Shown piece by piece: positions 27,683 to 64,000 of a stretch of DNA of 64,000 nucleotides (its first letter is position 1; every line of letters starts with the position of its first letter). The position numbers were made by a program, and so were the translations under genes. The DNA comes from a bacterium. Its GTDB lineage: Bacteria > Patescibacteriota > Patescibacteriia > UBA10025. The DNA is taken from positions 299,527-363,526 of the forward strand of contig JAKAGM010000001.1 in NCBI GenBank assembly GCA_021815445.1, in the 5' to 3' direction. A model generated the notes under the pieces. The model searched no databases. It worked only from the letters and a program-made list of their open reading frames with translations, and was not told the DNA's origin.

Positions 27683-28423
27683 TCAGGAGGAAGATGATTT
27701 GTTTTTTGCCCACTTTGCCGCCAAAACCTGCGCTTCGAGAAGGGAGTCAAAAGATTCACCGCCGTCTCCCCACCACCCCTTGAGCACCTGATAGGTCATC
27801 ACCCCTTTTTGAATGTAGTAGTTGTTGACATCGGTAATTTCCAGCTCCCCTCGGTCAGAAGGTTTGAGGGTCTTAATGACATTGAACACATTTTTATCGT
27901 ACATATACACCCCAACCACCGCCAGATTGGTCGGCGGATTCTTGGGTTTCTCAATAATACGGGTTATTCGTTCATTTGTAATCTCCGCGACTCCGTACGA
28001 TTGAGGTTTTTTTACCTCCTTGAGAAATATTTTTGCGCCCGCTTTTTGCTTCTCAAACTCGTGAGCGGCAGCCGAGATGTCATCTTCTAGAATATTATCA
28101 CCGAGCACGACAACAATCTTCTGGTTATCAGCGAAGTCTTCCGCCAGCCCAAGAGCCTGCGCTATTCCACCGGCTCCTTCCTGAAAAGTATAGTGGATCT
28201 CATGCAGTCCGAACTCTTTGCCATCACCAAGCAGCCGGACAAAGTCCCCCGGGTTGCCGCCGCCCATGACCAGGAGGATATCTTTAATCCCTGCACGGGC
28301 AAGGGTCTCCAAAGGATAAAAAATCATCGGCTTATTGTACACGGGGAGCAAATGTTTGTTGGTTACCCGTGTAAGCGGGCGGAGACGGGTTGCATTGCCT
28401 CCGGCGAGTATGATGCCTTTCAT
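27683..28423 (-). CDS. rmlA: Glucose-1-phosphate thymidylyltransferase, short form (RmlA-like sugar nucleotidyltransferase)
   Basis: 246 aa. MKGIILAGGNATRLRPLTRVTNKHLLPVYNKPMIFYPLETL is the RmlA G-loop signature. Last gene of the rml operon. Confidence 0.85.
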   Translation of the reverse strand: MKGIILAGGNATRLRPLTRVTNKHLLPVYNKPMIFYPLETLARAGIKDILLVMGGGNPGDFVRLLGDGKEFGLHEIHYTFQEGAGGIAQALGLAEDFADNQKIVVVLGDNILEDDISAAAHEFEKQKAGAKIFLKEVKKPQSYGVAEITNERITRIIEKPKNPPTNLAVVGVYMYDKNVFNVIKTLKPSDRGELEITDVNNYYIQKGVMTYQVLKGWWGDGGESFDSLLEAQVLAAKWAKNKSSSS

Positions 28424-29268
28424 AAGGTTGGTTTAGTTGATAGATAATCCCTGAGCGCGTCCTGCCATTTTTGAAGTTTTGGGAGTTTGGTATTAATCAG
28501 CATTGAATACCGGGGACGTTGTGCGGGGCGTGGAAATGTGCCTGCAGGCACTGGAATCAGTGTACCACTCCATCCAATTTGGGCAAATATTTCCTTTGCG
28601 AAACCGTACCAAGTGCAACCACCAGCATTGGTGACATGGTATATCCCCCACGGGTTGTTTCCATCAACAATTTCCCGTGTCCGTCGAGCAAGATCGGATG
28701 CATAAGTTGGACAACTGAGCTCCTCGTCAATGACAGTAAGGGTTGATTTTTCATGCGAGAGCTTGAGCATTTTATCCACGAAGCTTTCCTTAGTCTCTTG
28801 GCTGGAACCAGGAGAACCAAAAAGACGAGATAGTCTTATCAGGTAATATTTTGTGCAACACCGTTGGAGCTCCTGCTCTCCAAGTGCCTTTGACCTGGCG
28901 TACGCGCTTATTGGAGACTGAGGAGCGTCTTCTGCATACCCTTCTTTTTTTTGACCATCAAATATGTAATCAGTGGAATAGTGGACCAAAATTGCCCCAA
29001 TCTCCTGAGCAACAGAGGCAAGGTATCCCACCGCATAACCGTTTACCCTATCTGCGGTTTCCGAGTCAGTTTCGGCCGCGTCAACATTATTATATGCGGC
29101 AGCATTGATGATAATTTCTGGGTGCAGGCTGGCAATTTTATTGAACGTGTCTTCCTTCTCCGTAATGTCAATTTCAGCCCTATCCCATAACGAAAGCTCA
29201 GAATCTGAAAATGTCCGGGCGAGCTCCTGCCCAAGCATTCCTCTGCTGCCTATGATCAGCGCCTTCAT
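28420..29268 (-). CDS. rmlD: dTDP-4-dehydrorhamnose reductase RmlD
   Basis: 282 aa. MKALIIGSRGMLGQEL Rossmann start and YxxxK context typical of RmlD. 4-nt overlap with rmlA. Confidence 0.85.
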   Translation of the reverse strand: MKALIIGSRGMLGQELARTFSDSELSLWDRAEIDITEKEDTFNKIASLHPEIIINAAAYNNVDAAETDSETADRVNGYAVGYLASVAQEIGAILVHYSTDYIFDGQKKEGYAEDAPQSPISAYARSKALGEQELQRCCTKYYLIRLSRLFGSPGSSQETKESFVDKMLKLSHEKSTLTVIDEELSCPTYASDLARRTREIVDGNNPWGIYHVTNAGGCTWYGFAKEIFAQIGWSGTLIPVPAGTFPRPAQRPRYSMLINTKLPKLQKWQDALRDYLSTKPTL

Positions 29269-29272
29269 ATTG

Positions 29273-30271
29273 TTATCGTTCGATGTATTGCCTGGTGTAG
29301 TATTCCTGGAACTTTTTGCTTTTGAGCCTTTTCCACCATGCAGGATTGTCTTTGTACCATTGAATCGTTTTTGTTATCCCCCGTTCAAAAGTTGTTTTCG
29401 GCTTCCAACCGAGATGTCTCAAACGGTCGGAGTTTATCGAATAGCGAAGATCATGGCCCGGCCTGTCTTTCACATATTCTATGGAACGCTCGTCTTTTCC
29501 AAGCTCATGAAGAATGAGGCGCGTCAATTCGATGTTTGTTATCCCCTCACCAGTCCCTATATTGTAGACTTCGCCCAGGGCGCCTTTGTGAAGGATGAGA
29601 TCAACCGCCCGGCAATGATCTTCTGTGTAAATCCACTCACGTTGGTTCAAACCTTTGCCGTAGAGCGGAACCTTTTTGCCTTCAAGAAGATTGGTGACAA
29701 AAAGAGGAATAACTTTCTCAGGATACTGGTTAGGTCCATAAAAATTAACGCTATGAGTCACAATGACCGGGGTGCCGTAGGTCCTGATAAAAGCCCGGCA
29801 GAGCATGTCACCGCCGGCCTTCGACGCTGAATACGGGCTGTTGGGCAGGAAGGGGCTTTCTTCGGTAAACTCCCCCTTTTCAATACTGCCGAACACTTCA
29901 TCCGTCGATATTTGAACCATCCTAGGAATTTTGTATTTCTCAACTGCTTCAAGGAGCGTGAGAGTGCCTATAACGTCGGTAACCGCAAAATCCCTCGCCT
30001 CCATAATTGAGCGGTCCACGTGAGTTTCAGCCGCGTAGTTTATAATAGCATCAACGCCTCGTGCAACATCACCGACGCATTTCGCATCCGCAATATCGCC
30101 GCGCATAAAACCATATCGGGGATTTTGTTCTACATCTCTGAGATTTTCAGGGTTTCCCGCGTACGTCAGTTTATCAAGGTTCACCACCTCATAGTCCTCA
30201 TACTTCTCGAGGATATAGCGTATAAAGTTGGATCCCATGAACCCGGCGCCGCCGGTAACAAGTATTCGCAT
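29273..30271 (-). CDS. rmlB: dTDP-glucose 4,6-dehydratase RmlB
   Basis: 332 aa. MRILVTGGAGFMGSNFIRYIL...AAETHVDRSI...YSASKA is the extended-SDR RmlB pattern. Confidence 0.9.
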   Translation of the reverse strand: MRILVTGGAGFMGSNFIRYILEKYEDYEVVNLDKLTYAGNPENLRDVEQNPRYGFMRGDIADAKCVGDVARGVDAIINYAAETHVDRSIMEARDFAVTDVIGTLTLLEAVEKYKIPRMVQISTDEVFGSIEKGEFTEESPFLPNSPYSASKAGGDMLCRAFIRTYGTPVIVTHSVNFYGPNQYPEKVIPLFVTNLLEGKKVPLYGKGLNQREWIYTEDHCRAVDLILHKGALGEVYNIGTGEGITNIELTRLILHELGKDERSIEYVKDRPGHDLRYSINSDRLRHLGWKPKTTFERGITKTIQWYKDNPAWWKRLKSKKFQEYYTRQYIER

Positions 30272-30280
30272 AAGGTTAAC

Positions 30281-31558
<1,278 letters not shown>

Positions 31559-32074: not shown

Positions 32075-32492
32075 TTAATAAAGTCAAGGAAAAAAAGACA
32101 ATAAGCACGGTGACTATAGCTAACAATACAGAGAAATGCCCAACTGTGCGAGTTTGCCGGTATACAATGCCAGCTGAAGTGAGCGCCAAAATTGATCCAA
32201 TGCAGTATTCCTTGATGCCCGGTTTCTGGAATGTATATTGAGCCTCTTCGTTATGCACAAAAACACTAATTACTCCACTCACTGCAGCTATAGCGAGTAT
32301 GGCGTTAATATTAAAATAATTCGAGACGAAACTTGCACTCATGCTCTCGAGAAGGTACAAGCAAAGATACGTCACCAGGGAAACTTTGAATAGCTCAACT
32401 ATAACTAGCAAGTAAAAATGTGTCCAGAACCCCGCCTTTTTATCCTTGAGAAACATAACCCCTCTCACTTTCTTAATTGCCGGGTGAGCCAA
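32046..32492 (-). CDS. Small polytopic membrane protein, paralog B (GtrA/ArnE-ArnF-like candidate)
   Basis: 148 aa, ~4 hydrophobic helices. FKVSLVTYLCLYLLESMSASFVSNYFNINAILAIAAVSGVIS aligns with FKISLLTYLLFYVIENLYPGFISDYFNTNILLAITALSGTAS of the ORF at 36125-36544. Confidence 0.5.
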   Translation of the reverse strand: MAHPAIKKVRGVMFLKDKKAGFWTHFYLLVIVELFKVSLVTYLCLYLLESMSASFVSNYFNINAILAIAAVSGVISVFVHNEEAQYTFQKPGIKEYCIGSILALTSAGIVYRQTRTVGHFSVLLAIVTVLIVFFSLTLLNGRYNEKRI

Positions 32493-34231
32493 GAAGACAA
32501 TTTCGGGAAAAAGTTTTTGATCGTAATAGGATCTTTGTGGAAAGTAATTGTCAGTTCTTTTATTTTCATTGTCCGGTTATGTTCAGGCAAACCAGGAAAG
32601 TCGATAATGAAATGGGCAAGAATATCTTTTCCTTTATCTAAATAAAGGTACTGGGGTTCAATTGTCGCATCAGCGACTAGCCAATCCCCCTCAGTACGTG
32701 GCTGAGGATAATCGGCAATTATATAGTCATAATCGTCTATATGCTCAACGCTATCCACTTGGGCGACTGAGGCGTAATCTTGATTAAAGATCTGGCTTTT
32801 ATCCAAAGCGAAGAACCCGTCGCCCTGGATATAAACGTCATTGCCCGGCGATACTATTGCCGTTACCCCGGTGAGATTATTGATCTGAGCCGGCGAATTA
32901 ATCGCTGTCAATCTAAGGTCAAGACGACCGACTTTAAGCGTTTGAAGGCTTTCTGGATGCGATGTTTGCGCGCTGATTTTTGTGCTAGTGGTATAGACAG
33001 TAGTCGGCGTCAATACCTTTTCACCGAGTATATCTTTATACGCCTTGCTGTCAGTGAGGTAGATATTTCCCTTAAATACAATAAGATGCTGGGCAGTTGA
33101 AATATTTTTTATGAAAATGTCGTCAGGAGCGTTAATTTTTATTTTGTAAACGCCTTCGGGTAAATTTTCTCGAAAAACCTTCAAGGATCTCTCCTGGGTA
33201 ACAATGCTGCTTGCCTGCGTATCTCCGTCATCAGGCAATTTCTCTTCACCTACTGCTACGCCGCCTGAATCTTCGATAGACACAGAAAAAACGTCAGGAC
33301 CATCATGCCTGTTGCTATCCTGTATATTGAAAAGAAAGTTGAGATTTTCATTCTTTCCGATGTAGGTATCTATCTCGTGCGCCCCGCGAATACTTTTATT
33401 AATAATCGTTTCCTGTCCGCTCGGTTGGTAGCCTGGTAAATGTATGTATTTTGCGACGTTGTAATTATACTCCGCGATTTTGGATATAGCCGGTATGTTA
33501 GAAGTAAACTCTTCTATGGTGGAGTATAACGGCTTGCTTCGAATGGTGGGCACACTTTCCTCTGTGATTTTTTCGAGCGTATCCTGATACCTCGCCTCGA
33601 CAATTTGCTGCTCAGTAAGCATCGCCTGCATACGCTCAGAGTTGAGGTTGACACTGGGGCCGTAGTTTTTTTCTATATTTACCAAAGTTTGTGTTCTTGC
33701 ATCATCAAGCTTCTTTTTCTGGACAGGAAATGCTTTTTTCTTTTCCAAAGTTTCTCGGTAACGAGCATTGTCTTTTTGCCAGAGAACGATATCGCCCTGA
33801 CTTATTTTGTCCCAATAGTCGGGCAGATTATCAAGTGTGGCATTTTGAAAGGCCATATTTTCCAAATGATAGGCACCACTTGGTAATTTGGCGCCAAGGC
33901 GAGTTACCGGCTGGCCGTTTGGATTTTGGTAGGTTAAAATGACGTTTGCACTTTTGAAAGGGCGAGGTACTTTCACATCAAAGTAGGTCGGGTTTGTCGT
34001 AATTAGCTGAAAATAATCGATGTTGCCGGAAATATTTTTTGTCCCGATTAATTTGTCCGGTTCTTTTGACGCAAAATTCCTGACGAGAAGCGAGGGTTGA
34101 TTTGGATGGTAAACAATCTTTAAGGTGCCGCCAAGTACCAGGTGTTTATCTACTAACCAAACAAACAGAACTATCGGCGCAAGCCAAAGTATGATTTTTA
34201 CTGCTCGTAATGGTATATGGTGTTCGTCCAT
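32465..34231 (-). CDS. Large N-terminally anchored extracytoplasmic protein, unknown function
   Basis: 588 aa. TM at residues ~10-28 (IILWLAPIVLFVWLV), remainder hydrophilic. Lies between the GT-C gene and small-membrane paralog B. Confidence 0.5.
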   Translation of the reverse strand: MDEHHIPLRAVKIILWLAPIVLFVWLVDKHLVLGGTLKIVYHPNQPSLLVRNFASKEPDKLIGTKNISGNIDYFQLITTNPTYFDVKVPRPFKSANVILTYQNPNGQPVTRLGAKLPSGAYHLENMAFQNATLDNLPDYWDKISQGDIVLWQKDNARYRETLEKKKAFPVQKKKLDDARTQTLVNIEKNYGPSVNLNSERMQAMLTEQQIVEARYQDTLEKITEESVPTIRSKPLYSTIEEFTSNIPAISKIAEYNYNVAKYIHLPGYQPSGQETIINKSIRGAHEIDTYIGKNENLNFLFNIQDSNRHDGPDVFSVSIEDSGGVAVGEEKLPDDGDTQASSIVTQERSLKVFRENLPEGVYKIKINAPDDIFIKNISTAQHLIVFKGNIYLTDSKAYKDILGEKVLTPTTVYTTSTKISAQTSHPESLQTLKVGRLDLRLTAINSPAQINNLTGVTAIVSPGNDVYIQGDGFFALDKSQIFNQDYASVAQVDSVEHIDDYDYIIADYPQPRTEGDWLVADATIEPQYLYLDKGKDILAHFIIDFPGLPEHNRTMKIKELTITFHKDPITIKNFFPKLSSWLTRQLRK

Positions 34232-53839: not shown

Positions 53840-54790
53840 ATGACCCAATCGATTTTCAGAAAATATTATTCTTCCGAATCGCTTGTTGATAAATTCTCGA
53901 GTGATCAATCATCGGGCGTCGATGTGATTATTCCCATTATTCACACAAATGAACTGTGGGAAAGCAATTTGCATTCTATGTACCGGGAAATTCCGATTCG
54001 GCGTTTGCTTATCGGTGACGGCGGATGCAAGGATAATTCCATTGAAGTGGTAAAGAAGTTTCCGCGAGTAAAAATTTTTGACCATAGGTCATTCGTTTCA
54101 CTCGGATATAGCATCAAAAAGCTAATCGAGCAAGTCGAGTCCGAATGGTTTATTTACCTTCACTCAGATGTTTATATTCCCGCCGGTTGGTTTATCGAAA
54201 TGTCAAAGAATAAAAAAAACTACGACTGGTTTGAGTGTAACCAGCGCATAACGGCGCTCATTGAATATCCCCTTGATTACACGGGGATCCATCGACCGTT
54301 TTCGGGAAGCCAGATGGGGAAAAAAGAAATATTTTCGTCCGTCCTGGGTAAGATAGATGATGACTTTCTTTATCGAAATGAGGATATAATTTTTTCAGAG
54401 TTAATCCAAAAAGAGGGGTACCGATACGGCAGGGTTAAGTCAACTTTTCACTACCATCAATTAATGCACAAAGAGGGACCATGGGAGCGAAAAATATCCT
54501 CTGTCGACTTTATCGTGGAAAAGTCAAAAGAGGAGGAGTTTAGAGAGTCAAATATGCAAATCAGGGGGATCATTAAATATCTCGATCCGACTGACGCTCA
54601 CGCAGATATGATTCAAATTCATATTGCAAAGTTGTTGTCGAAACATCTTCTCCAAAAAAAGAAATTTGTGCGATGGGTTGAGCAAACCAATCCGGCATGG
54701 AAAAAACTCATCAAGCGAAGGTTAAAAAAGATTGCTTTGCTTAATGCCGTTAAACGCGCATATGCATTAATTCCCGGCTGGTTGAGGTAG
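53840..54790 (+). CDS. Putative GT-A fold glycosyltransferase
   Basis: 316 aa. VDVIIPIIHTNE ... IGDGGCKDNS ... YLHSDV resemble GT2-like nucleotide-binding and DxD elements. Weak assignment. Confidence 0.4.
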   Translation: MTQSIFRKYYSSESLVDKFSSDQSSGVDVIIPIIHTNELWESNLHSMYREIPIRRLLIGDGGCKDNSIEVVKKFPRVKIFDHRSFVSLGYSIKKLIEQVESEWFIYLHSDVYIPAGWFIEMSKNKKNYDWFECNQRITALIEYPLDYTGIHRPFSGSQMGKKEIFSSVLGKIDDDFLYRNEDIIFSELIQKEGYRYGRVKSTFHYHQLMHKEGPWERKISSVDFIVEKSKEEEFRESNMQIRGIIKYLDPTDAHADMIQIHIAKLLSKHLLQKKKFVRWVEQTNPAWKKLIKRRLKKIALLNAVKRAYALIPGWLR

Positions 54791-54801
54791 CCGACACAAG
54801 T

Positions 54802-56244
54802 ATGAAAAAAAAAGTTTTAGTGATTATTCATTCAAACACCTATTTTAATGAGTTGTTTAAATTAGCCAGAATGCTTTTACACTCCGAGGCGTATGAACCG
54901 ATTTTGTTATTTCCCGTAAACTACTCCAGAAAAGACGATAATGTTGCGACTTGCTTGCATAATGGATTAACTTGTCTCGATGAATTAGGTACTCAGCTGA
55001 AACACGCAAGTGTTAAAAATACCGGCGTAACAGCGTCAACGTTTCCTTTACATAATGTGACTGCCTCTTTGCGTACCTGGGTGCGAAACATGCTCAAAAT
55101 CATCCAAATTGACTTCATTTTCGGGACTTTGTACATGATTCTATTTCTGAAAAGACGAATCTCATTCGCTCAAGAGGTCATTAAAAAGCACAATTGTGAA
55201 CTCATAGTCGTGGGTGGCGATCTTGTACATTATGATTCTTCCGCATTTATCCGCGCGGGGCATGAATTGGGCGTTAAGTCCGTCATCATACCTTGCACGA
55301 TGTCAAACGCCCTTGAGATGGCGGAATCATACTACGGTGACAAGCGCTATTCGATGTCAACTCTTGGTAACTGGCTTGCGGGTAAGCTGATGCCTGAGTG
55401 GACCTATATACATAAGGGAAAAAAAATGCTTCGGACTCCGGCCGACCGTGCATTTGCTATGTATTTTCTCCGCCTCTCCCCCCCATTTCCGTGGATAAAT
55501 AACAGCTCCTTTGCAGATGCCATTGCGGCAGAGAGCGAGATGATGAGGCTGTATTACACTCGAGAAGGGATACCAAACGCTCAGATAACAATTACAGGAT
55601 CCCCCTCTCATGATATTTTGGCGAGTGCCGAAAAAAAGCTTGATACCGAGAAACATACTATTTTCCGGGAGTTGAATCTCAACCCGGGAAAACCGGTCAT
55701 TTTATCCCCCCTGGTGCCAAATCAACACTACCTCGCCGGGGGAAGACCTGAATGCGAATTTCGCACTTATGAGGAACTAATCGAATTCTGGGTACATGCC
55801 ATTTCGAAGATGAGCTCGTCTCATAATATTTTAATAAATCTCCACCCTTCAATGAAAATTGATGATTATAGGAAATTTGAGAAAAATGGAGTTACAATTT
55901 CCGACGCTGACATAACATCACTCATACCTTACTGTGATTTCTTTGTAGCAAGCGTTTCTTCAGTCATTCGGTGGGCCATTGCGTGCGGCAAGCCTGTCCT
56001 TAATTATGACATATATAAATTCCGATACACTGATTACCTCTACCAACCAGCGGTGATCACTACTGAGAAAAAAGGGGATTTTCTGAATTTCTTGGAAAGG
56101 TTGAGCCATGACGCCGCATATTTACGCGAGTTATCGCTGAAGCAAAAAATTTTTTCGAGGAAATGGGGTATCCTTGATGGCAAAGCGCACGTCAGAATCA
56201 TCCAGTTGTTTGATTTGCTCACCAAATCGGGAGTACATGCCTAG
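54802..56244 (+). CDS. Large GT-B-like transferase, tandem paralog 1 (Capsule_synth/KpsS-KpsC-like candidate)
   Basis: 480 aa. N-terminus KVLVIIHSNTYFNELFKLARML. C-terminal FFVASVSSVIRWAIACGKPVLNYDIYKF resembles the ...TINSgvGlEAL..GKPV..G...Y motif of beta-Kdo/sialyl-type Capsule_synth transferases. Confidence 0.45.
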   Translation: MKKKVLVIIHSNTYFNELFKLARMLLHSEAYEPILLFPVNYSRKDDNVATCLHNGLTCLDELGTQLKHASVKNTGVTASTFPLHNVTASLRTWVRNMLKIIQIDFIFGTLYMILFLKRRISFAQEVIKKHNCELIVVGGDLVHYDSSAFIRAGHELGVKSVIIPCTMSNALEMAESYYGDKRYSMSTLGNWLAGKLMPEWTYIHKGKKMLRTPADRAFAMYFLRLSPPFPWINNSSFADAIAAESEMMRLYYTREGIPNAQITITGSPSHDILASAEKKLDTEKHTIFRELNLNPGKPVILSPLVPNQHYLAGGRPECEFRTYEELIEFWVHAISKMSSSHNILINLHPSMKIDDYRKFEKNGVTISDADITSLIPYCDFFVASVSSVIRWAIACGKPVLNYDIYKFRYTDYLYQPAVITTEKKGDFLNFLERLSHDAAYLRELSLKQKIFSRKWGILDGKAHVRIIQLFDLLTKSGVHA

Positions 56245-57595
56245 ATTCATACTCTTTGTCGTAAATACAAACACATATTTCTCCGTATTATTCAATTTAG
56301 CCAGGCGGTTTAAGGCGTCTTCTTTCGCCATCCATATCGTGTTTGATGGAGGCTACCCTACCCTTCAACACGATATCGAACGCTGCCGAACAGCAAGACT
56401 AGATTTTTCCATTAGAAACGAGTACGGTTTTTCGAATAATTATTTCATCCGCGTCCTTCAGTTAATCTTATCGAGGGGGTCCCTTGGCAAATTCGTTAAA
56501 TCCTATCTCCAGACGCTCTATGATATCCGATCAATTAAGCAGCTACTGCAACAAAAACAGCCGGATTTTATCGCCCTGGCGGCTGATAACGTCGCATATT
56601 CCACCGCGTTATATATTAAGCTCGGACATACCCTCGGCATAAAAACAGTCGTTTTTCCGCAGTGGTTAGCTAATGCGAAAGAGCCCGTGGAATTTATCAT
56701 TAATGACGATGATTATGAAGTGAAATCTGTTTACTCAAAACTTATTGCCAGGTTCTTTCCCAAGTGGACTTTTTCTGTGAATGGAAAAACATTGCTTCGT
56801 CTGCCTGCTCAAAAAATACTTCTCAAGGAGCTATTTGGCATCTCGCCCAAACTCCCATGGATACTGCATAGCGGAGATGCCGATCGTATCGCTTTAGAAA
56901 GCCGGGCGATGAAAGCATTTTCCAGGAGAATTGGCTTGCCGGATGAACAAACCATTGTAACAGGTTCATTGGAGCTAGACATGTTGTGCGATATAAAGAA
57001 ACACTCTGCAATTTTGCGCCATAAACTCTACGCTAGATACGGATTTGCAAAATCACGCCCCCTTGTGATTACCGCCCTGCCGCCTGATTTCTACACACAT
57101 ACCGGAGGGAGGCCTCAAAGCGAATTTAAAAATTACCGAGAGCTTTTGAATAAGTGGATTGATGCTTTCAAAGTCAATAACCCGGCGAATTTACTGGTTT
57201 GCGTTCATCCCTCTGTAGATAAAAAAAACTTTTCACTGGCTGAGACTGCATACATGAAGCTCTGCAGGGAAGATTTAATTAACGTTTTACCACTTGGGGA
57301 CTTGTTCGTAGCAAGTGTTTCCGCTACTATTCAGTGGGCAATCTGCGTAAATATCCCGACTATAAACTATGACGTTTACCAATATGACTACGATGAATAT
57401 AAGCATGTTGCGGGCGTTATTACTGTTCGCGATTACCACAATTTTAAAACGACGCTGAAACATCTGACACAGCGGCCGGCTGAAATCGAGGAGCTGAGGA
57501 AAAAGCAAAGCAAAATCTCAGACATGTGGGGAACTCTCGATGGTCATTCATTCGACCGTATACAATCATTAATCGATTCTCTCGATAAAGCATGA
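56237..57595 (+). CDS. Large GT-B-like transferase, tandem paralog 2
   Basis: Aligns with the preceding gene at both ends (FILFVVNTNTYFSVLFNLARRF; LFVASVSATIQWAICVNIPTINYDVYQYDY; C-terminal WGTLDGHSFDRIQSLID vs WGILDGKAHVRIIQLFD). Start at ATG 56237 (8-nt overlap) preferred over ORF-track 56174. Confidence 0.45.
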   Translation: MPRFILFVVNTNTYFSVLFNLARRFKASSFAIHIVFDGGYPTLQHDIERCRTARLDFSIRNEYGFSNNYFIRVLQLILSRGSLGKFVKSYLQTLYDIRSIKQLLQQKQPDFIALAADNVAYSTALYIKLGHTLGIKTVVFPQWLANAKEPVEFIINDDDYEVKSVYSKLIARFFPKWTFSVNGKTLLRLPAQKILLKELFGISPKLPWILHSGDADRIALESRAMKAFSRRIGLPDEQTIVTGSLELDMLCDIKKHSAILRHKLYARYGFAKSRPLVITALPPDFYTHTGGRPQSEFKNYRELLNKWIDAFKVNNPANLLVCVHPSVDKKNFSLAETAYMKLCREDLINVLPLGDLFVASVSATIQWAICVNIPTINYDVYQYDYDEYKHVAGVITVRDYHNFKTTLKHLTQRPAEIEELRKKQSKISDMWGTLDGHSFDRIQSLIDSLDKA

Positions 57596-58473: not shown

Positions 58474-58481
58474 TACCAACC

Positions 58482-59153
58482 ATGAACAACATCTTGCTCA
58501 ACCCACTGACGATATATATAAAGAGGCTGCTGGTTGCATTAAGCTTGCAGACGGTTAATTATAAAAAACACCTGTCCATTGGCAATATGAGTGTGGTAAA
58601 AAATTGCCATTTTGGAACATACAATACTATATATGAGAATGCACGCCTCATCGACGTTACCGTTGGCGATTTTACCTACTTTTCCAGCAATTCGTGGGTT
58701 AGCAACGCCGTTATTGGTAAATTCTGCTCAATCGGTCCCGGAGTCATGTGCGGATTAGGCATACATCCAACTTCATTCGTATCGACCCATCCAGCTTTTT
58801 ACTCGACTCAAAAACAAGCTCAAGTAACATTTGCAACCAAGAATCTTTTTGATGAACATAAAATGACAAACATCGGCAATGATGTCTGGATTGGTGCTCG
58901 TGCAATCATACTTGACGGGGTCACAATCGGTGACGGAGCAATCATTGCCGCAGGTGCAGTAGTGACAAAAAATGTTGCTCCCTATGCGATAATGGGTGGG
59001 GTTCCTGCGACTATCATTAAATACCGATTTGGAGACGACGAAATTAAGTCGTTATTGCGACTACAGTGGTGGAATAGAGACCCTCAATGGTTACAACTTC
59101 ACTCAGAACAGTTCACAAAAGTATCAGAATTCCTCAGGTCTAGGTCCGGATAA
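58482..59153 (+). CDS. Hexapeptide-repeat O-acetyltransferase (XAT/CatB-Vat-like)
   Basis: 223 aa. VWIGARAIILDGVTIGDGAIIAAGAVVTKNVAPYAIMGGVPATIIKYRF is the left-handed beta-helix xenobiotic acetyltransferase C-terminus. Confidence 0.85.
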   Translation: MNNILLNPLTIYIKRLLVALSLQTVNYKKHLSIGNMSVVKNCHFGTYNTIYENARLIDVTVGDFTYFSSNSWVSNAVIGKFCSIGPGVMCGLGIHPTSFVSTHPAFYSTQKQAQVTFATKNLFDEHKMTNIGNDVWIGARAIILDGVTIGDGAIIAAGAVVTKNVAPYAIMGGVPATIIKYRFGDDEIKSLLRLQWWNRDPQWLQLHSEQFTKVSEFLRSRSG

Positions 59154-59183
59154 AGCCGCCTACTAGATTTAGGAAGGGTTCAG

Positions 59184-59999
59184 TCATGTAGCCGAATTCA
59201 TCAAGCGCTGGCGTTTTTTTTCGATTCGCACGCTGATATCATAGCCGAATATAATCACCGCTATACCGCGTAGTAGGTAAAAATACTGCGATAACCTGAT
59301 AAACAGGCCTTTTGAGTATTTTCTCTGAAGTTGAAATGATTCAAAGAGATGTTTCATGGTTTTAGTCGCACTTTTTGTCTGCATATAATAGCGAGCATTC
59401 GAAATAACCCATGGGAGTGTAATAGGCTCAGCTACCGCGGCCATGCGAAGCCATAAATCATAATCCATAGACAGGTGTAAGCTCTCGTCAATAAGCCCGA
59501 CTTTTAGGAAAAAATCCTTCCGATAAAAGCAGCTTGGTTGGACTATAGTATCCACACATAGTAATTTATTTTTTGAGTATACTTCCGGCATTTTCACCAC
59601 GAATTCGCGACCCTCTAAATCGACAAATTTCCATCCCCCATACCCCCACTGAGCTTCCGGGTACTTGAGAAATTGCTCGACGACGCTACCAAGAACCTGC
59701 GGTTCATAATAGTCGTCAGAATTCAAGTATGTGAGCAACTCGCCGGTGGCAAGCTTGGATCCCTTATTAATCGCATCAGACTGGCCGCGGTCAGGCTCGG
59801 AAATAAATCGGAAACGGATACCTTTTTTTTCGATTAACGGTCTAAATTTTTCCACAATGTGCGCCGTTTCGTCAGTAGACTTCCCGTCAACAATAATGAA
59901 CTCAAGATCTAGGTCGTCAGGCTGGCGCAATATACTCTCAATAGTCTGAGAAATAAATTTGCCCTGATTGAACGATGGTGTGATAATTGAAAGTCGCAT
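59184..59999 (-). CDS. Family 2 glycosyltransferase (GT-A)
   Basis: 271 aa. LSIITPSFNQGKFISQTIESIL...IIVDGKSTD...LNSDD(Y) are GT2 N-terminal and DxD motifs. Confidence 0.88.
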   Translation of the reverse strand: MRLSIITPSFNQGKFISQTIESILRQPDDLDLEFIIVDGKSTDETAHIVEKFRPLIEKKGIRFRFISEPDRGQSDAINKGSKLATGELLTYLNSDDYYEPQVLGSVVEQFLKYPEAQWGYGGWKFVDLEGREFVVKMPEVYSKNKLLCVDTIVQPSCFYRKDFFLKVGLIDESLHLSMDYDLWLRMAAVAEPITLPWVISNARYYMQTKSATKTMKHLFESFQLQRKYSKGLFIRLSQYFYLLRGIAVIIFGYDISVRIEKKRQRLMNSAT

Positions 60000-60008: not shown

Positions 60009-61556
60009 TTACATTATTTTAAATAGTGAGACGTCCCGTCCGCTAAACAAGGATATATAATGATTGTTTTGGTATAACGCGATGAGCGCATCTAATTTGC
60101 CGTTGCCTTCGAAGCTGTTTTTCATGAATAAAAAGTACTTTACGTTCTTCTCCTTAAAATACCTTAAACTTGAATCGGCCGATGGAGTATTTAAGGCAAT
60201 ACAACCGACATCAGCAGCATTGCAAAGCGTCCTACTCGTGGAAAAGTAACGTATATCACGGTCGGTGAGCATGCTGTCGTGGTATGTTTCAGATACGGCG
60301 TTGAAATTTGAATATACTAAATCATCCTTGCCTGAGACTTGATTCAATAATCGGAGTGCCTCGATTTGCTGCGCTGTCACCTTGTTAGATTGATTATACA
60401 GATTATAAACCCTATTAGCGCCGGCTGTAACTATCAATACTATAAAAATTGAAGAGATCACTACCATAATTTTCCTATTGAATCCCATGCGCGACAACTG
60501 AAAAATATAAAAAGCAGAAAAAACAGCTACAACGGTCCCCGCTAAAAAGATTATTCTTTCGAAATAGAAATTAACCCCAAGTTTATACGTTTGTGAGAGA
60601 CCCGCTATCACAATAAAAAATATAACCGGCAATAATTTGTAGGAGCGTATATTTTCTTTAAAACGGGTTACATATACCAATATGCCAAGGCATGCGGTAA
60701 CGAAGACGAAATCACCAAGATACGTGTGAAACTCGGAAAAAGGGATTACTTTCATAAATTTATTTGACGAAATTGAAAGCCAAAAAGCATGTTTCGCCTC
60801 TTTAAAAACAGGCAAATAAAGTTTAAAGAAGAAAAGAAGCGGTAAAAACAACAGGCATATGGCCAATAATCGAAAATACCTATTCAAAGCAAAAAAGATT
60901 TTCTTGATTTCGCTTCTGAGTGTTTTGTTGATTCCTATAAGTAATGCCACATATACTATGTATGTCAAAATGTAAATCGGCGCAGTTAAATAATTATGAG
61001 TTAGGTATAGTGCTAGGAGAAACACCGCAATTAGAATGGGGTAGATTTTTTTTCTGGTTGCAAAATATTTGTATGTAAAATAATAAGTAATATTAATGTA
61101 CACAAAGGCCAGAAGGTTGGAAACTGTTGAACCGATAAATAAACGTATTATTGAAAAACTTCCTAAGAGCGCAATGGGAAGAAGTATTGAGGAAAATTTT
61201 CCGTAAATCCTGCCAACTAAATAGCAACTGAGGAGCAACAACAGAATGAGGAATATCTGATATATCGAAAAAAGTGGGAAAACAATATCGAGATTAGTCA
61301 CGATATTCAGTAAAGCAAGATTTAAGTCGGTTAGTGGAGCCGTATATGCCCCCGAACCGTGGTACGTGAGCTGATAAGGCTTGGGCAAAGTATTATTATC
61401 CACAATCCAATGCACATCATTAATATAAACAGCCGCATCAACGCCAGGCGGCACTGGCTTAACAACTGCATAGAGAAAGATTGCAACCCCAAGGCAAAAA
61501 ACAAAAAAAAGCATTAGGCTAAATAAAATTTGCGCGTGTTTACGATAAAAATTCAT
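60009..61556 (-). CDS. Polytopic membrane protein with C-terminal soluble domain (candidate GT-C/polymerase/oligosaccharyltransferase-like)
   Basis: 515 aa with ~11 hydrophobic segments. Acidic/aromatic first external loop (PPGVDAAVYINDVHW). ~150-aa hydrophilic C-terminus. No firm family. Confidence 0.5.
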   Translation of the reverse strand: MNFYRKHAQILFSLMLFFVFCLGVAIFLYAVVKPVPPGVDAAVYINDVHWIVDNNTLPKPYQLTYHGSGAYTAPLTDLNLALLNIVTNLDIVFPLFSIYQIFLILLLLLSCYLVGRIYGKFSSILLPIALLGSFSIIRLFIGSTVSNLLAFVYINITYYFTYKYFATRKKIYPILIAVFLLALYLTHNYLTAPIYILTYIVYVALLIGINKTLRSEIKKIFFALNRYFRLLAICLLFLPLLFFFKLYLPVFKEAKHAFWLSISSNKFMKVIPFSEFHTYLGDFVFVTACLGILVYVTRFKENIRSYKLLPVIFFIVIAGLSQTYKLGVNFYFERIIFLAGTVVAVFSAFYIFQLSRMGFNRKIMVVISSIFIVLIVTAGANRVYNLYNQSNKVTAQQIEALRLLNQVSGKDDLVYSNFNAVSETYHDSMLTDRDIRYFSTSRTLCNAADVGCIALNTPSADSSLRYFKEKNVKYFLFMKNSFEGNGKLDALIALYQNNHYISLFSGRDVSLFKIM

Positions 61557-61579: not shown

Positions 61580-62731
61580 CTATATTGTAACATTTCTTTT
61601 GCTAAGTATCGAGACGTAAACATTTTCCAGCTGCTGAGCGATCAGGTCCCAGGTATTGTTTCTGGAAACTTTTTCATATCCAGTTTTTCCCATTATGAGG
61701 CTACGATCCGGATGAAGAGTTAGGTAGTCTATTTTTTCCACTAACTCACCAAGGTTTCCTTTCTCAAAAAGCAATCCGTCCTTCCCGTCCTCTACAACTG
61801 ATTGAAGCGCGGGCAAGTTGCTCGCTACCACCGGTTTCCCGCACGCAAATGCCTCTATGAGAACAATCCCAAACGATTCATTGTCAGATGGAAGGACCAA
61901 AAAGTCAGATTGGTGAAGATACTGACTGATCTCTTTGTTCGCTACTCTTCCGATAAAAGTAATGTGTTTGCTAATTCCCAATTGAATGGCCAAGTCCTCG
62001 TATGCCTGGCGCATGTCACCGTCACCGATCACAATCAAATGTGTTGGGGCCGCTGTGAGCGGGATAACTTTCATGAGCAGGTCCAATCTTTTGTAGTAGT
62101 GGGCCCTATCGAGCGCTCCAATGAAACATATTATCGGGATCTGGCTCGGAATGTGAAATTTCTTTCTCATGTCAACCCCACGGCCAGTGCTCACAAAATC
62201 ACGAAGGTTGATGCCGTTCGGAATTATTATTATTTTTTCATTAATGTTCTTAAGGGATAAAATTTGCGAGCTGTTAATATGATTTCGAGTAAGTGCTATT
62301 ATTTTGTTTGCGTCATACATGACGTGTTTTCTGAAAAGACCATTATACGTTGAAAAAATCGCCTTTCTGAGGATGCTGTCCCCCTGGATATCAACGTGAT
62401 AATTAACTACATAGGGTATGTGATACTGACGGGCAGCATTTCTCACAAATATATCCCCTCCGAAAAATGGGTAATGTAAGTGGAGCATATCAAAATCTGC
62501 TAATTTCTTGCGAAGAGATGGTATAAAGCTTGCATTACCAACAGTCAATAGGGGTCTTATATACTGTATCTTAAATGGGGTGATCCCGTGATATCGCCCA
62601 TGGCGTGGCCACGGCACGAATACGGTGACTGCATGCCCACGTCGGCTCAAGGCTTCAGCTTGATAAAAACATACATTACCTATCCCCCCCTCGTAAGGAG
62701 GAAATGTTGAGCTAATATGCGCAATGTTCAT
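61580..62731 (-). CDS. Family 4 glycosyltransferase (GT-B, retaining)
   Basis: 383 aa. MNIAHISSTFPPYEGGIGNV N-terminus. C-terminal E...E GT4 region (IVLIEAFACGKPVVASN). Confidence 0.9.
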   Translation of the reverse strand: MNIAHISSTFPPYEGGIGNVCFYQAEALSRRGHAVTVFVPWPRHGRYHGITPFKIQYIRPLLTVGNASFIPSLRKKLADFDMLHLHYPFFGGDIFVRNAARQYHIPYVVNYHVDIQGDSILRKAIFSTYNGLFRKHVMYDANKIIALTRNHINSSQILSLKNINEKIIIIPNGINLRDFVSTGRGVDMRKKFHIPSQIPIICFIGALDRAHYYKRLDLLMKVIPLTAAPTHLIVIGDGDMRQAYEDLAIQLGISKHITFIGRVANKEISQYLHQSDFLVLPSDNESFGIVLIEAFACGKPVVASNLPALQSVVEDGKDGLLFEKGNLGELVEKIDYLTLHPDRSLIMGKTGYEKVSRNNTWDLIAQQLENVYVSILSKRNVTI

Positions 62732-62744
62732 CTCTCGCTGACCG

Positions 62745-63782
62745 TTATTCTGTTAGGCTAAGCTCCTTAACGGGAATACCAAAGCGACGAAACCATGAAA
62801 CAATCTCCTTGCTTCCAACAACAGTGTATTTCCGCACTGCTTTCCTTTTTGCTACTATGCGCGGCAAAGATACGATTGCGGATATCCACGCCGAACATAC
62901 TATCATGACTAAGCGTACCCCGGAGGATTCCCCTGCCAATTTTGCCGCTGAGCCCTTCCGTGCAAAAACTCCGTATAACTGGTAACAATACCTCTGTAAA
63001 GTATAGAGGGGGCTGCGAAGTAAAAGTGGTAAAGGAAACAGCTTTGCCGCGAACCACACCCTGTTCCTTTCTACCAAGAATGCTTTGCGTGCCGAGTATT
63101 TGCCCACAGTTGCAGAGTATCTGTGATACAGCTTAGCATCCGGAACGTACAGACATGTCCACCCTCCTAATCTGGCGCGAAATCCCAGATCGCTGTCTTC
63201 AAGGAAAAATTGGTAATCTTCATCGAATAACCCTATCGTATCAAGCATATCTTTTCGATACATCCCCGCACACCCGCTTGGAAAAAAAACCTCTAGGGAT
63301 TTATCAAACTGCCCGCTGTCTCTCTGCATCCTTCCTCTCCCTCGGCAAATACCGTCGGGATAAATGAGTAAGCCGGTGCTGTCTATGACGTCACGACGGT
63401 AGAAGTTCAATATTTTGGTCGCCCACATTCCTACGGCTGGCAGAGACCTTTCGGCAGCTTCAACCAATCGGGATAAGAAGTTTTCATCAAGTTCAACATC
63501 GTTGTTCAGCACCAACACATATTTTCCTTTTGCCAACCGTATCCCGGCATTATTACCAGCTGAAAAGCTGTTTTCTGCGCAAATAACGGTAGTAATTCTA
63601 TCCGATCTCCCGTTGAGATACTGGAGCGATCCGTCTGTTGACCCGGTATCTACAAAGATGACCTCGTAGCGGGTATACGTTTGCTTGAAAATGGATGAAA
63701 TGAGTGCTTCAAGAAATTTTCGTCCGTTTCGGTTGAGAATGATAAGCGAAATAACGGGGTATGATCCCATAACTGAAGGCAT
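62745..63782 (-). CDS. Family 2 glycosyltransferase (GT-A)
   Basis: VISLIILNRNGRKFLEALISSI...VIFVDTGSTDGS...NNDVEL...(D)SDLGFR. ATG at 63780-63782 chosen. The ORF track extends to a TTG at 63797. Confidence 0.85.
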   Translation of the reverse strand: MPSVMGSYPVISLIILNRNGRKFLEALISSIFKQTYTRYEVIFVDTGSTDGSLQYLNGRSDRITTVICAENSFSAGNNAGIRLAKGKYVLVLNNDVELDENFLSRLVEAAERSLPAVGMWATKILNFYRRDVIDSTGLLIYPDGICRGRGRMQRDSGQFDKSLEVFFPSGCAGMYRKDMLDTIGLFDEDYQFFLEDSDLGFRARLGGWTCLYVPDAKLYHRYSATVGKYSARKAFLVERNRVWFAAKLFPLPLLLRSPLYTLQRYCYQLYGVFARKGSAAKLAGESSGVRLVMIVCSAWISAIVSLPRIVAKRKAVRKYTVVGSKEIVSWFRRFGIPVKELSLTE

Positions 63783-63783
63783 G

Positions 63784-64000
63784 CTAACGTTTTTCAATTG
63801 TCTTCAGGGTCTCTTCTCGGGTGAACGCTTCAATCCGTTTTTCCATGCGTCTAACAATTACATAATTTCTAAACGTAATGCCAAAGAGTACAACGATTGC
63901 CACCACAACGACGAGGTCAAACGTACGGCTAATACTAAAACTTGTCAGTATGAACTGCACGCTCCGCGGATAAATAACGACAGCGATAAGTCCTACCCAC
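63784..64000 (-). CDS. Partial CDS (C-terminus only) of a hydrophobic membrane protein, first visible gene of the minus-strand glycosyltransferase operon
   Basis: Reverse translation ...WVGLIAVVIYPRSVQFILTSFSISRTFDLVVVVAIVVLFGITFRNYVIVRRMEKRIEAFTREETLKTIEKR with stop at 63784-63786, 1 nt from the next gene start. Confidence 0.4.
   Translation of the reverse strand, partial: WVGLIAVVIYPRSVQFILTSFSISRTFDLVVVVAIVVLFGITFRNYVIVRRMEKRIEAFTREETLKTIEKR

Follow-up and report, generated by a model that had tools for sequence, protein, structure and literature searches.

The O-chain of Legionella pneumophila serogroup 1 is a polylegionaminic acid that is 5-acetimidoylated, N-methylated by a PtmH-like methyltransferase and O-acetylated, and it is exported by Wzm/Wzt (PMC3766260). 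The GT39/PMT_2 family includes GacL, CsdD, CsdF, and GtsC, which act as decorating enzymes in the multi-component transmembrane glycosylation systems of Gram-positive bacteria (PMC8035078). In Tannerella forsythia, addition of the terminal pseudaminic acid (Pse) or legionaminic acid (Leg) needs Tanf_01245 and TFUB4_00887, which are TagB-like GT-B orthologs of BFO_1060 with an HP motif; no other Pse/Leg transferases of this type have genetic support (PMC5420450). Here we analyze a surface-glycan locus in a 64,000-nucleotide stretch of DNA from a Patescibacterial genome (the window; GenBank assembly GCA_021815445.1, contig JAKAGM010000001.1, positions 299,527 to 363,526). We consider it fairly probable that this locus directs the synthesis of a heteroglycan, with rhamnose and uronic acids as well as a Leg5Am7Ac-like sugar among its residues, that an ATP-binding cassette (ABC) transporter exports and that receives its decoration outside the cytoplasm, and that the locus itself consists of a conserved anchor and a lineage-variable cassette.

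Gene content and extent of the locus

According to an initial annotation of the window, positions 27,683 to 64,000 form a single large locus for a glycoconjugate, in which the genes of an ABC exporter stand with those for dTDP-rhamnose and for an acetamidino-legionaminic-type sugar. Family searches agree, with Wzm/Wzt, NeuB, NeuC, NeuD, and WbuX all scoring above the cut-offs. The glycan genes that the annotation had read from the sequence were likewise recovered with Pfam and NCBIfam, that is, RmlA, RmlD, and RmlB with an RmlC-family cupin, Wzm/Wzt with a Wzt_C domain, the six legionaminic-type enzymes, the amidotransferase trio, the methyltransferase, and the acetyltransferase, and the GT-C enzyme was recovered by its structural model (Table 1). 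From position 27,683 on, all usefully sized open reading frames (ORFs) belong to sugar or envelope-glycan metabolism. The first 27.6 kb hold housekeeping genes, which include those for L,D-transpeptidase, SecA, agmatinase/arginine decarboxylase, MurB/C/G, FtsW, MurD, and MraY, followed by L27, CTP synthase, L9, an S41 protease, MurA, and a PEGA-domain membrane protein.

Although the locus is real, its proposed right end at 64,000 is only the edge of the window. On a longer metagenome contig (ENA ERZ27237554 k141_1660939, 877,264 bp; labeled L001), on which we read the downstream genes, the cluster runs ~6.7 kb further with genes for, in order, a DUF2304 protein, a GT2 enzyme (220 residues), two UDP-sugar dehydrogenases, two SDR epimerases, a second GT2 enzyme (247 residues), and GtrA, after which come a subtilisin-like protease and then a PDZ protein. 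In window numbering, the whole locus therefore extends from 27.7 kb to about 70.7 kb, a length of ~43 kb.

The variable part of the locus opens with a DUF1616 gene, found at the same position in three relatives (L087, L171, and L082; labels are explained below), followed by an SDR-type epimerase gene (with identities of 86% to L087 and 80% to L171) and the exporter genes, of which Wzm is 85% identical in L087. No Polysacc_synt family match that would indicate Wzx was found in the locus, either in scans of the window or on the source contig. The starts of the Wzt gene (41402) and of the CMP-nonulosonate synthetase gene were refined. All six legionaminic-type enzymes are encoded in one operon (42.7–48.3 kb), which is, by its family matches, a legionaminic-type gene set.

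A HisF-like protein, a HisH-like protein, and WbuX together form a known route to acetamidino sugars. Given the adjacency of these genes to the operon and their co-occurrence with nonulosonate genes elsewhere, the WbuXYZ-type trio would form the acetamidino group on the nonulosonic acid. WbuX is 81–83% identical in three other loci (L092, L093, and L094), and in other contigs, too, the adjacent pair of GFO/IDH/MocA oxidoreductases accompanies WbuX and the GT-B genes. By analogy with ORF8/PtmH of L. pneumophila (PMC3766260), the methyltransferase that follows could either N-methylate the acetamidino group or cap the chain end. The hexapeptide-repeat acetyltransferase probably O-acetylates a sugar.

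Candidate nonulosonate transferases

The initial annotation had counted three candidate nonulosonate transferases, which is a fair description of the two GT-B paralogs and the DUF115-like protein, none of them a demonstrated member of a characterized family. The two paralogs (30% identity, E 1e-77) match NF046086, the BFO_1060 family, over their C-terminal ~230 residues with 38 and 27 bits, and the three TagB-like proteins of the window reach 38.2, 26.8, and 20.2 bits; because these scores lie far under the cut-off of 200, the paralogs are remote relatives of the BFO_1060 family and not members of it. The GT-B fold was modeled with a predicted local distance difference test score (pLDDT) of 94. 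An exhaustive search placed 1767 representative clusters in the GT-B family, and in an alignment of 60 of its sequences the H-P pair is invariant, with remote matches to BFO_1060 in 28 members and to TIGR04396 in 17. Searches of the PDB with the family profile gave only weak matches to CapG and 2-epimerases, and GTB473 gave no useful match.

We next compared 36 metagenome loci of the GT-B family (at least 10 kb long) with 58 background MurA loci for genes within 10 kb. As many as 17 of the 36 hold WbuX (several of these also NeuB and the CMP-synthetase), and the CMP-synthetase was found in 13, NeuB in 11, NeuC in 13, and Wzt in 12, compared with 0/58 for each in the background (Fisher p = 4e-9 for WbuX, 8e-7 for the CMP-synthetase, and 9e-6 for NeuB), an enrichment that is overstated because the background consists of MurA loci and not of glycan loci. 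The association supports, without proving, the view that the GT-B family are nonulosonate transferases. The commonest neighbor was a homolog of the divergent GT2-like protein, present within 10 kb in 20 of the 36 loci.

The DUF115-like protein, which gave no PDB sequence match, is a weak candidate for a Maf-like transferase by its sequence; its gene follows the GT-B genes in L092–L094 too. The 348-residue TagB-like protein of the high-GC pair described below has an HP motif at residue 211, matches to TarB and BFO_1060 below threshold, and a weak profile match to the family of the two paralogs, and by these similarities may be a fourth, weaker CMP-sugar transferase candidate.

The arrangement WbuZ-WbuY-WbuX-GFO-GFO-methyltransferase-GT2-like-GT-B (two to three copies)-DUF115-like-acetyltransferase-GT2, which occupies 48340–59999 in the window, recurs in L092, L093, L094, and metagenome loci L099–L169, and parts of it lie in contigs of GC 0.31–0.70.

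The GT-C enzyme and a second polytopic protein

The AlphaFold2 model of the GT-C enzyme (pLDDT 91.7) has ArnT as its best Foldseek match (5f15; E 9e-8, TM-score 0.54), followed by AglB, STT3, PglB, ALG9, and AftA; the matches to AglB, PglB, and STT3 have TM-scores of 0.46–0.53. In the acidic motif of the first extracytoplasmic loop, P43-D44 is invariant among 71 homologs and E45 is kept in at least 90% of them. Homologs are annotated as GT39/PF13231 and are nearly all Patescibacterial, and many at ~40% identity carry PF13231. An STT3-type oligosaccharyltransferase was considered; the lack of WWDxG in all 71 aligned family members and the small C-terminal domain (~85 residues in the model) reduce its likelihood. 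At the far end of the cluster, 0.1–7 kb past the window, lie the donor-making parts, that is, the 220-residue GT2 with DUF2304 and the 247-residue GT2 with GtrA, both of which would work with the GT-C enzyme, itself expected to use a polyprenyl-phosphate-linked donor. Because the enzyme combines an ArnT-like fold and a small C-terminal domain with the lack of WWDxG, GT39/PMT_2 homologs, and the GT2+DUF2304/GtrA genes in the cluster, we favor a role, suggested by the model, in which it adds single sugars from polyprenyl-phosphate donors onto the exported glycan.

The product of 60009–61514, predicted to be polytopic, has no family or PDB sequence match even in a relaxed Pfam scan and is 61% identical in L092. 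From its predicted topology, it may be a second GT-C or a Wzy-like enzyme.

Composition of the locus

The 23 core genes (0.9–27.6 kb) have a G+C content (GC) of 0.465 overall and of 0.469 at third codon positions (GC3), and the nine anchor genes at the left of the locus (27.7–36.5 kb; 0.449 and 0.469) are indistinguishable from them (p = 0.28 for GC and p = 0.80 for GC3). The 25 genes of the variable block (39.2–63.8 kb; 0.422 and 0.443) show a small shift to lower GC than the core genes (Mann-Whitney p = 1e-5; p = 0.014 for GC3), and codon bias relative to the core is 0.275 in the block versus 0.221 (p = 1e-4). Because this shift is largest at codon position 1, it reflects amino-acid usage. 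The sole strong compositional outlier is a pair of genes at 36.9–39.0 kb with GC of 0.577 and 0.555 and GC3 of 0.673 and 0.600 (z = 6.0 and 4.0 compared with 0.457 ± 0.036 for all other genes), which agrees with the high-GC insert (0.58 and 0.56) that the initial annotation had proposed. A distinct low-GC sub-block at 42.7–59 kb, also proposed there, was ruled out as a separate unit, as the flanking genes have the same composition and 39.2–64 kb is uniformly about 0.42 GC. Overall, the claim of a compositionally mosaic island is borne out only in part: deviation from the core is strong at 36.9–39.0 kb, mild at 39.2–64 kb, and absent at 27.7–36.5 kb. Scans for tRNAs, Rfam families, integrases, and border repeats gave nothing that marks any boundary of the locus, and around 35.9–39.7 kb the tRNA, Rfam, and repeat scans gave short A/T-rich chance repeats only.

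A conserved anchor and a block inherited with the lineage

In a collection of 185,579 species representatives, MurA finds its nearest matches in metagenome-assembled genomes named "Patescibacteria group bacterium" (61–69% identity), which identifies the source organism as a bacterium of the Candidate Phyla Radiation (CPR), a possibility that the initial annotation had raised; this MurA search gave no representative of the same species. We compared the window with the GT-C or MurA neighborhoods of eight further Patescibacterial genomes (loci labeled L002 etc.). In all eight, the order MurA - PEGA protein - RmlA/D/B - (S-adenosylhomocysteine hydrolase) - small transmembrane protein - ~590-residue protein - GT-C is retained with small rearrangements. 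Because it lies beside MurA in 8/8 relatives, the region from 27.7 to 36.5 kb is a lineage-conserved anchor that is part of the core genome and no island. The left third of the proposed island thus falls away: it is syntenic by MurA in every relative sampled and core-like in composition, and conservation of this kind is what the annotation had itself named as evidence against an island.

The nearest relative is covered by two contigs, one with L002 and L087 and the other with L088/L092, and in it every gene from GT-C to the UDP-sugar dehydrogenase stands in the same order, the high-GC pair included. Identities within this block (56–86%) are like those of MurA, the S41 protease, and PyrG (56–81%), and such collinearity at core-like identity indicates that the arrangement predates the split of two lineages that are ~30% apart in core proteins. 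Across the relatives, L087/L088/L092 have a collinear block, L171 and L089 a partly collinear one, and L082, L083, L085, and L172 a different one. L171 has DUF1616 - epimerase - Wzm - Wzt - CMP-synthetase - NeuB as in the window, without the high-GC pair, and L089 has a legionaminic-type cluster with Wzx in place of Wzm/Wzt. Beside GT-C stand UbiA, glycerol-3-phosphate dehydrogenase, nucleotidyltransferase, and GT4 genes in L082; methyltransferases, an APH-like kinase, and GT4 genes in L083; Wzx, a GFO oxidoreductase, GT2, and GT4 in L085; and Wzm/Wzt, GT4 genes, and an FdtA-like cupin in L172. The site adjoining GT-C is therefore a hot spot whose content differs among the more distant relatives. 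The comparison of island presence or absence, which the annotation had proposed as a check, accordingly has two answers: the block is present and collinear in the nearest relative, and other glycan genes occupy the site in distant ones.

Homologs of NeuB at 58–69% identity are numerous, and all the named ones are Patescibacterial (Falkow-, Magasanik-, Yanofsky-, and Parcubacteria). The initial annotation had described such a sugar repertoire as one normally seen in pathogens; by their sequence relationships, NeuB-type genes appear to circulate within CPR and not to be recent imports from pathogens. An identical GT4 occurs on ten contigs, nine places of which were collapsed as having mostly the same neighboring genes, and we saw no strain-level variation among these ten contigs. 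Assembly of the locus by several transfers, as also proposed, does not agree with the collinearity of the block and the high-GC pair in the nearest relative, with the synteny of the anchor, or with the lack of mobility genes, tRNAs, and repeats. Overall, these comparisons of sequence indicate that the locus was inherited with the lineage and not recently pieced together.

The high-GC pair stands at the same place in L087 (68% and 66% identity), where it is also raised in GC (0.53 and 0.49 compared with a background of 0.42), and it is missing from L171. Because it is shared with the nearest relative, the pair is an old insertion specific to the clade of the window and that relative. An assembly chimera was ruled out at this point, as an identical protein occurs on four contigs and the pair has the same position in the nearest relative. 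We found no high-GC donor phylum: the 348-residue TagB-like protein has only 41 homologs, the sole organism-named one being from Yanofskybacteria, and elsewhere these lie only 3–6 GC points over their surroundings, without an adjoining gene for the NUDIX-like partner. A PDB sequence search with the 280-residue NUDIX-like protein gave no useful match, and the idea that its gene is a moved copy of the NUDIX gene in other anchors was ruled out for lack of any similarity. Between the two convergent genes of the pair, a short spacer (37783–37890) carries a palindromic A/T tract (GCGCGTTTTTTTAAATAAAAAAACG) together with a GC stem (GGGAGAAGCTATACTTCTCCC) and by its sequence resembles a bidirectional terminator.

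Table 1. Features of the glycan locus within the window, with the family, fold, or topology evidence for each (bits are given with the model cut-off; E denotes the E-value).
Feature	Coordinates	Strand	Evidence
PEGA-domain protein, N-terminal transmembrane helix (residues 8–26), large ectodomain	26309..27637	+	PF08308 E 4e-10
RmlA, glucose-1-phosphate thymidylyltransferase	27683..28423	-	PF00483 E 5e-57
RmlD, dTDP-4-dehydrorhamnose reductase	28420..29268	-	PF04321 E 3e-78
RmlB, dTDP-glucose 4,6-dehydratase	29273..30271	-	PF16363 E 3e-73
S-adenosylhomocysteine hydrolase	30281..31537	-	PF05221, PF00670
RmlC-family cupin, 171 residues	31559..32074	-	PF00908 77 bits > cut-off; TIGR01221 62.9 bits < 155.75
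Small membrane protein, ~4 transmembrane helices	32046..32492	-	Transmembrane prediction
588-residue protein, N-terminal transmembrane anchor, large extracytoplasmic domain	32465..34231	-	Conserved beside GT-C
GT-C-fold membrane glycosyltransferase, ArnT/PMT_2-like, 563 residues	34283..35974	-	AlphaFold2 model, Foldseek
Second small protein with 4 transmembrane helices	36125..36544	-	Paralog of the 32046–32492 product
280-residue protein, weak NUDIX-like region	36940..37782	+	PF00293 E 4e-5
TagB/TagF-like GT-B enzyme, 348 residues	37891..38937	-	PF04464 E 6e-8
DUF1616 small membrane protein	39204..39572	+	PF07760 E 2e-9
SDR-type NDP-sugar epimerase/reductase, GDP-fucose-synthase-like	39569..40552	+	PF01370 E 5e-42; NF047922 103 bits < cut-off
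Wzm, ABC-2 permease	40567..41397	+	PF01061 E 2e-18
Wzt ATPase with C-terminal Wzt_C glycan-binding domain	41402..42676	+	PF00005 E 3e-23; PF14524 38.1 bits > 30.4
CMP-nonulosonate synthetase, LegF-like	42711..43427	+	PF02348 E 2e-31; TIGR03584 179 bits < 205.7
Nonulosonate synthase, NeuB/LegI type	43408..44481	+	TIGR03569 425.5 bits > 399.65; PseI model 278 < 340
Hydrolyzing NDP-sugar 2-epimerase, NeuC/LegG type	44471..45628	+	TIGR03568 361.7 bits > 235.9
NeuD/PglD-type N-acetyltransferase, LegH-like	45621..46226	+	TIGR03570 178.9 bits > 160.8
DegT-type sugar aminotransferase, LegC-like	46223..47335	+	PF01041 E 2e-112; PseC and LegC models < cut-off
NDP-GlcNAc 4,6-dehydratase, Polysacc_synt_2 (PseB/PglF) family	47328..48323	+	PF02719 E 7e-103; PseB equivalog 332.9 < 407.75
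HisF-like cyclase subunit, WbuZ type	48340..49209	+	TIGR03572 272.4 bits, just < 299.7
HisH-like glutaminase subunit, WbuY type	49202..49885	+	TIGR01855 195.9 bits > 105.4
N-acetyl-sugar amidotransferase, WbuX family	49882..51102	+	TIGR03573 363.4 bits > 203.2
Two tandem GFO/IDH/MocA oxidoreductases	51122..53077	+	PF01408 E 6e-11, 3e-9
S-adenosylmethionine (SAM)-dependent methyltransferase	53074..53829	+	PF08241, PF13489
Divergent GT2-like protein	53840..54790	+	PF00535 26.2 bits > 23.3
TagB-like GT-B enzyme, 480 residues, candidate CMP-nonulosonate transferase 1	54802..56244	+	PF04464 E 4e-5; NF046086 26.8 bits < 200; HP at residue 348
Paralogous GT-B enzyme, 452 residues, candidate CMP-nonulosonate transferase 2	56237..57595	+	Paralogy
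DUF115/MptE-like protein, 293 residues	57592..58473	+	PF01973 25.2 bits < 34.6
Hexapeptide-repeat acetyltransferase, CatB/Vat-like	58482..59153	+	PF00132 E 3e-15; NCBIfam matches all < cut-off
GT2 glycosyltransferase	59184..59999	-	PF00535 E 2e-26
Polytopic membrane protein, 501 residues, ~12 transmembrane helices and ~130-residue C-terminal domain	60009..61514	-	Transmembrane prediction
GT4 glycosyltransferase	61580..62731	-	PF00534 E 2e-37
GT2 glycosyltransferase, 341 residues	62745..63770	-	PF00535 E 3e-24

Anchor genes and neighboring genes

The PEGA protein is the conserved left neighbor of the locus; it stands between MurA and RmlA in L002, L005, L082, L083, L171, and L172, and one might speculate that it is an acceptor of the glycan. 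RmlA is 80% identical to its ortholog in L002. RmlA, RmlB, and RmlD are clear, and the 171-residue cupin is the only candidate 3,5-epimerase of the locus. In some relatives, a canonical RmlC of ~180 residues lies between RmlD and RmlA (L082 18010–18555, L083 18787–19338, and L172 18879–19424); the window and L002 lack it and retain the 171-residue cupin elsewhere in the anchor, and some relatives have both. The gene for S-adenosylhomocysteine hydrolase is kept at its anchor position in 7/8 relatives' loci, being absent from L171, and the flank of L089 ends short of the position; the enzyme may tie the anchor to SAM-dependent sugar methylation.

The 588-residue protein has no Pfam, NCBIfam, or PDB sequence match, and its orthologs, which are 34–44% identical, adjoin GT-C in all relatives. 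This protein and GT-C are flanked in the window by two small paralogs with four transmembrane helices each (49% identity over 47 residues, E 2e-14). An ortholog of 136–157 residues precedes the ~590-residue protein in the relatives, which have one copy, and L087 has no gene at the position of the second; the second copy is thus a duplication specific to the window. The single copy of L002 is closer to the second window copy (44% compared with 34%). Neither small protein has a family match in Pfam, NCBIfam, or a relaxed Pfam scan, so the initial annotation's label of a flippase for the membrane proteins beside GT-C is without support; the only recognizable flippase-type gene is that for GtrA, outside the window.

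Within the housekeeping part, a type IV pilus assembly operon (15508–20684) encodes PilB, PilC, PilM, PilN, and a PilO-like protein of 185 residues. PyrG, the CTP synthase (21346–23079), is 81% identical to that of L002 and 38–40% identical to those of L003, L004, L005, and L171, and MurA is 58–69% identical to that of L002, L003, L004, L005, and L171 alike. These identities suggest that a foreign CTP synthase copy may have replaced the original in the clade of the window and L002. Among the relatives, L003 (CAZJUO010000019.1) and L004 (CAYPXF010000015.1) come from records titled "uncultured Gammaproteobacteria"; they share the Patescibacterial order L27/PyrG/L9/S41/MurA/rml/S-adenosylhomocysteine hydrolase/~590-residue protein, together with PilM/PilN, and only in L003 does GT-C fall inside the fetched DNA. 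The Gammaproteobacteria labels of both are probably wrong.

Discussion

Starting from the gene families, folds, synteny, and distribution described above, we propose a pathway in which the heteroglycan would be built on a polyprenyl carrier by the cytoplasmic GT2 and GT4 enzymes, the two TagB-like GT-B enzymes, and possibly the DUF115-like protein. The donors would include dTDP-L-rhamnose, uronic acids made by the genes just past the window, and a CMP-activated legionaminic-type nonulosonic acid, which is the presumed donor of the GT-B enzymes. This sugar would be turned into its 5-acetamidino form by the WbuX/Y/Z-type amidotransferase, with N-methylation and O-acetylation as possible further modifications. 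The finished chain would be exported by Wzm/Wzt, with the Wzt_C domain probably recognizing the terminal residue. Outside the membrane, single sugars would be added from polyprenyl-phosphate donors that the GT2 enzymes with DUF2304 or GtrA make and flip and that one or more GT-C enzymes transfer. The order of these steps, the stereochemistry and modifications of the sugars, and the acceptor, presumably a wall polymer or a surface protein, are predicted from the same data.

Several observations weigh against this pathway. Neither the window nor the 10 kb beyond it holds a recognizable initiating phosphoglycosyltransferase, LCP-type or Wzy_C-type ligase, or acceptor protein. The only PF00953 protein in the window or L001 is MraY, in the mur operon, and the initiating enzyme may be encoded elsewhere in the genome. 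The initial annotation had likewise named no acceptor in the window, and indeed none emerged: a search of all six frames gave no prepilin cleavage motif and no pilin gene, and the scanned ORFs gave no LCP-ligase, Wzy_C/O-antigen-ligase-type, or S-layer match in Pfam. The GT-C enzyme of the window itself has no Pfam PMT_2 (PF13231) match even at E <= 1, and the DUF115-like protein remains under the PF01973 threshold. The 4,6-dehydratase, which matches the C. jejuni LegB model weakly, and the aminotransferase score nearer to PseB and PseC than to C. jejuni LegB and LegC, which makes the D-glycero-D-galacto configuration of the sugar a putative one; epimers such as 8-epi- or 4-epi-legionaminic acid are possible products. 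Finally, if the product of 60009–61514 were a Wzy-type polymerase, it could complicate a purely ABC-dependent model.

In the main alternative, the GT-C enzyme could be an oligosaccharyltransferase that puts the whole exported glycan on a surface protein in a system of general protein glycosylation, like archaeal AglB loci or Gram-positive S-layer glycan clusters, with an S-layer-like or PEGA protein, the 588-residue ectoprotein, or pilins as acceptors. The enzyme does stay constant beside changing clusters and export types (Wzx in L085 and L089; Wzm/Wzt in the window, L171, and L172), as a final transferase of relaxed specificity would, and it is flanked by conserved ectoproteins (PEGA and 588-residue); its structural matches extend to AglB, PglB, and STT3 at TM-scores of 0.46–0.53, and DUF1616 is an archaeal-type family. 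However, its best structural match, ArnT, is a single-sugar transferase, its C-terminal domain of ~85 residues is small and WWDxG is absent from the 71 family members, its named homologs belong to GT39/PMT_2, the family of the decorators GacL, CsdD, and GtsC, the cluster carries the donor-making pairs GT2+DUF2304 and GT2+GtrA, and the window holds no pilin gene. Taken together, we consider this explanation unlikely. It is very improbable that the sugar is N-acetylneuraminic acid (Neu5Ac) or Pse and that the acetamidino trio modifies some other amino sugar, as in the FucNAm of Escherichia coli O145. NeuB passes a model named "N-acetylneuraminate synthase," and Pse models give the highest scores for the dehydratase, aminotransferase, and CMP-synthetase, though under their cut-offs. 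Yet Neu5Ac is made without a 4,6-dehydratase, an aminotransferase, or an N-acetyltransferase, and the presence of all three in the operon excludes plain Neu5Ac. The Pse pathway uses PseG, PseH, and a PseI-type synthase, and the finding of NeuC above its cut-off and PseI below, together with the lack of any UDP-sugar-hydrolase or GNAT-family match for PseG or PseH in Pfam scans of the window ORFs, argues against Pse. WbuX, moreover, directly follows the nonulosonate genes and co-occurs with NeuB and the CMP-synthetase in unrelated contigs.

As to origin, the initial annotation viewed the locus as a mosaic island, horizontally assembled by several recent transfers and variable among strains. This has in its favor that the variable block lies ~4 GC points under the core with a different codon bias, that the pair at 36.9–39.0 kb is a strong GC3 outlier and absent from L171, that L082, L083, L085, and L172 carry other glycan genes beside GT-C, and that parts of the WbuX-GFO-methyltransferase-GT2-GT-B cassette occur in contigs of GC 0.31 to 0.70. 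Against this stand the core-like composition and synteny of 27.7–36.5 kb in all relatives and the collinearity of the block, high-GC pair included, in the nearest relative, where its identities resemble those of core genes. Moreover, neither a tRNA nor an integrase, an Rfam element, or a flanking repeat was found, the named NeuB homologs (58–69% identity) are all Patescibacterial, codon position 1 accounts for most of the compositional shift, which thus reflects amino-acid usage, and the identical GT4 on ten contigs has mostly the same neighboring genes in nine places. We therefore regard recent piecemeal assembly as improbable and prefer a locus with a conserved anchor and a cassette that varies between lineages.

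The cell surface of CPR bacteria is barely known experimentally, yet their lifestyle depends on host-cell attachment. The locus amounts to a testable prediction of a surface polymer with a sialic-acid-like sugar in a group in which intact legionaminic-type clusters are common; such a cassette was present in 4/8 of the relatives' loci sampled. The combination of conserved anchor and variable cassette offers a handle for surveying surface-glycan types across CPR genomes, and the GT-B family provides candidates for the poorly known legionaminic and pseudaminic acid transferases. We suggest, tentatively, that many Patescibacteria diversify their surface glycans in a serotype-like manner, with a fixed anchor, exchanged cassettes among which legionaminic-type ones are common, and the GT-B family as nonulosonate transferases. 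If true, the coat could set host-cell recognition or the evasion of phages and predators in episymbionts, and the GT-B family, with its 1767 representative clusters, would be a large uncharacterized family of nonulosonate transferases. A full-text search gave no paper in which Patescibacteria or CPR are mentioned along with nonulosonic or legionaminic acid, and a broader search had none among its top 25 results. The presence and frequency of legionaminic-type clusters in CPR thus seem to have escaped comment, even though the synthases already bear their names in public annotations.

Comparison with known systems

The chemistry, export route, and gene families of the locus are all of known kinds, and no new mechanism is needed. 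Compared by gene content, the closest known logic is that of L. pneumophila serogroup 1, which likewise combines Wzm/Wzt, legionaminic genes, an acetamidino group, a methyltransferase, and O-acetylation with rhamnose genes nearby (PMC3766260). The organism of the window, in contrast, has no visible lipopolysaccharide genes and so neither a lipid A-core acceptor nor WaaL, and whereas the L. pneumophila chain is a homopolymer, the eight or more glycosyltransferases and the uronic-acid genes of the locus point to a heteropolymer. The O-acetyltransferases differ as well, that of L. pneumophila being of the Lag-1 type and that of the window a hexapeptide-repeat enzyme.

In the Group A carbohydrate (gac) locus of Streptococcus and the rhamnan locus of Lactococcus, too, dTDP-rhamnose genes and an ABC exporter occur with a soluble GT2 and its small membrane partner, a GtrA-type flippase, and a PMT_2-type GT-C that decorates the polymer outside the membrane (PMC8035078). 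Those polymers contain no nonulosonic acid, however, and the window shows no visible GacO-type initiator or LCP ligase. We take DUF2304 to be the equivalent of GacJ, which would make the GT2+DUF2304 pair GacI/GacJ-like.

The flagellin island of Campylobacter jejuni shares with the window a CMP-legionaminic pathway, the PtmH methyltransferase for Leg5AmNMe7Ac (PMC3766260), and putative transferases of the DUF115/Maf type. In the window, by contrast, the cluster is without flagellar genes, the DUF115-like protein is a 293-residue protein under threshold, and the dehydratase is of the Polysacc_synt_2 family and not of the LegB type. PtmG of C. jejuni is presumably an acetamidino enzyme of the WbuX family. 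In T. forsythia, finally, a TagB-like GT-B enzyme with an HP motif is encoded beside nonulosonate genes, as in the window, but there it serves protein O-glycosylation in a diderm, whereas the glycan of the window would leave the cell through Wzm/Wzt.

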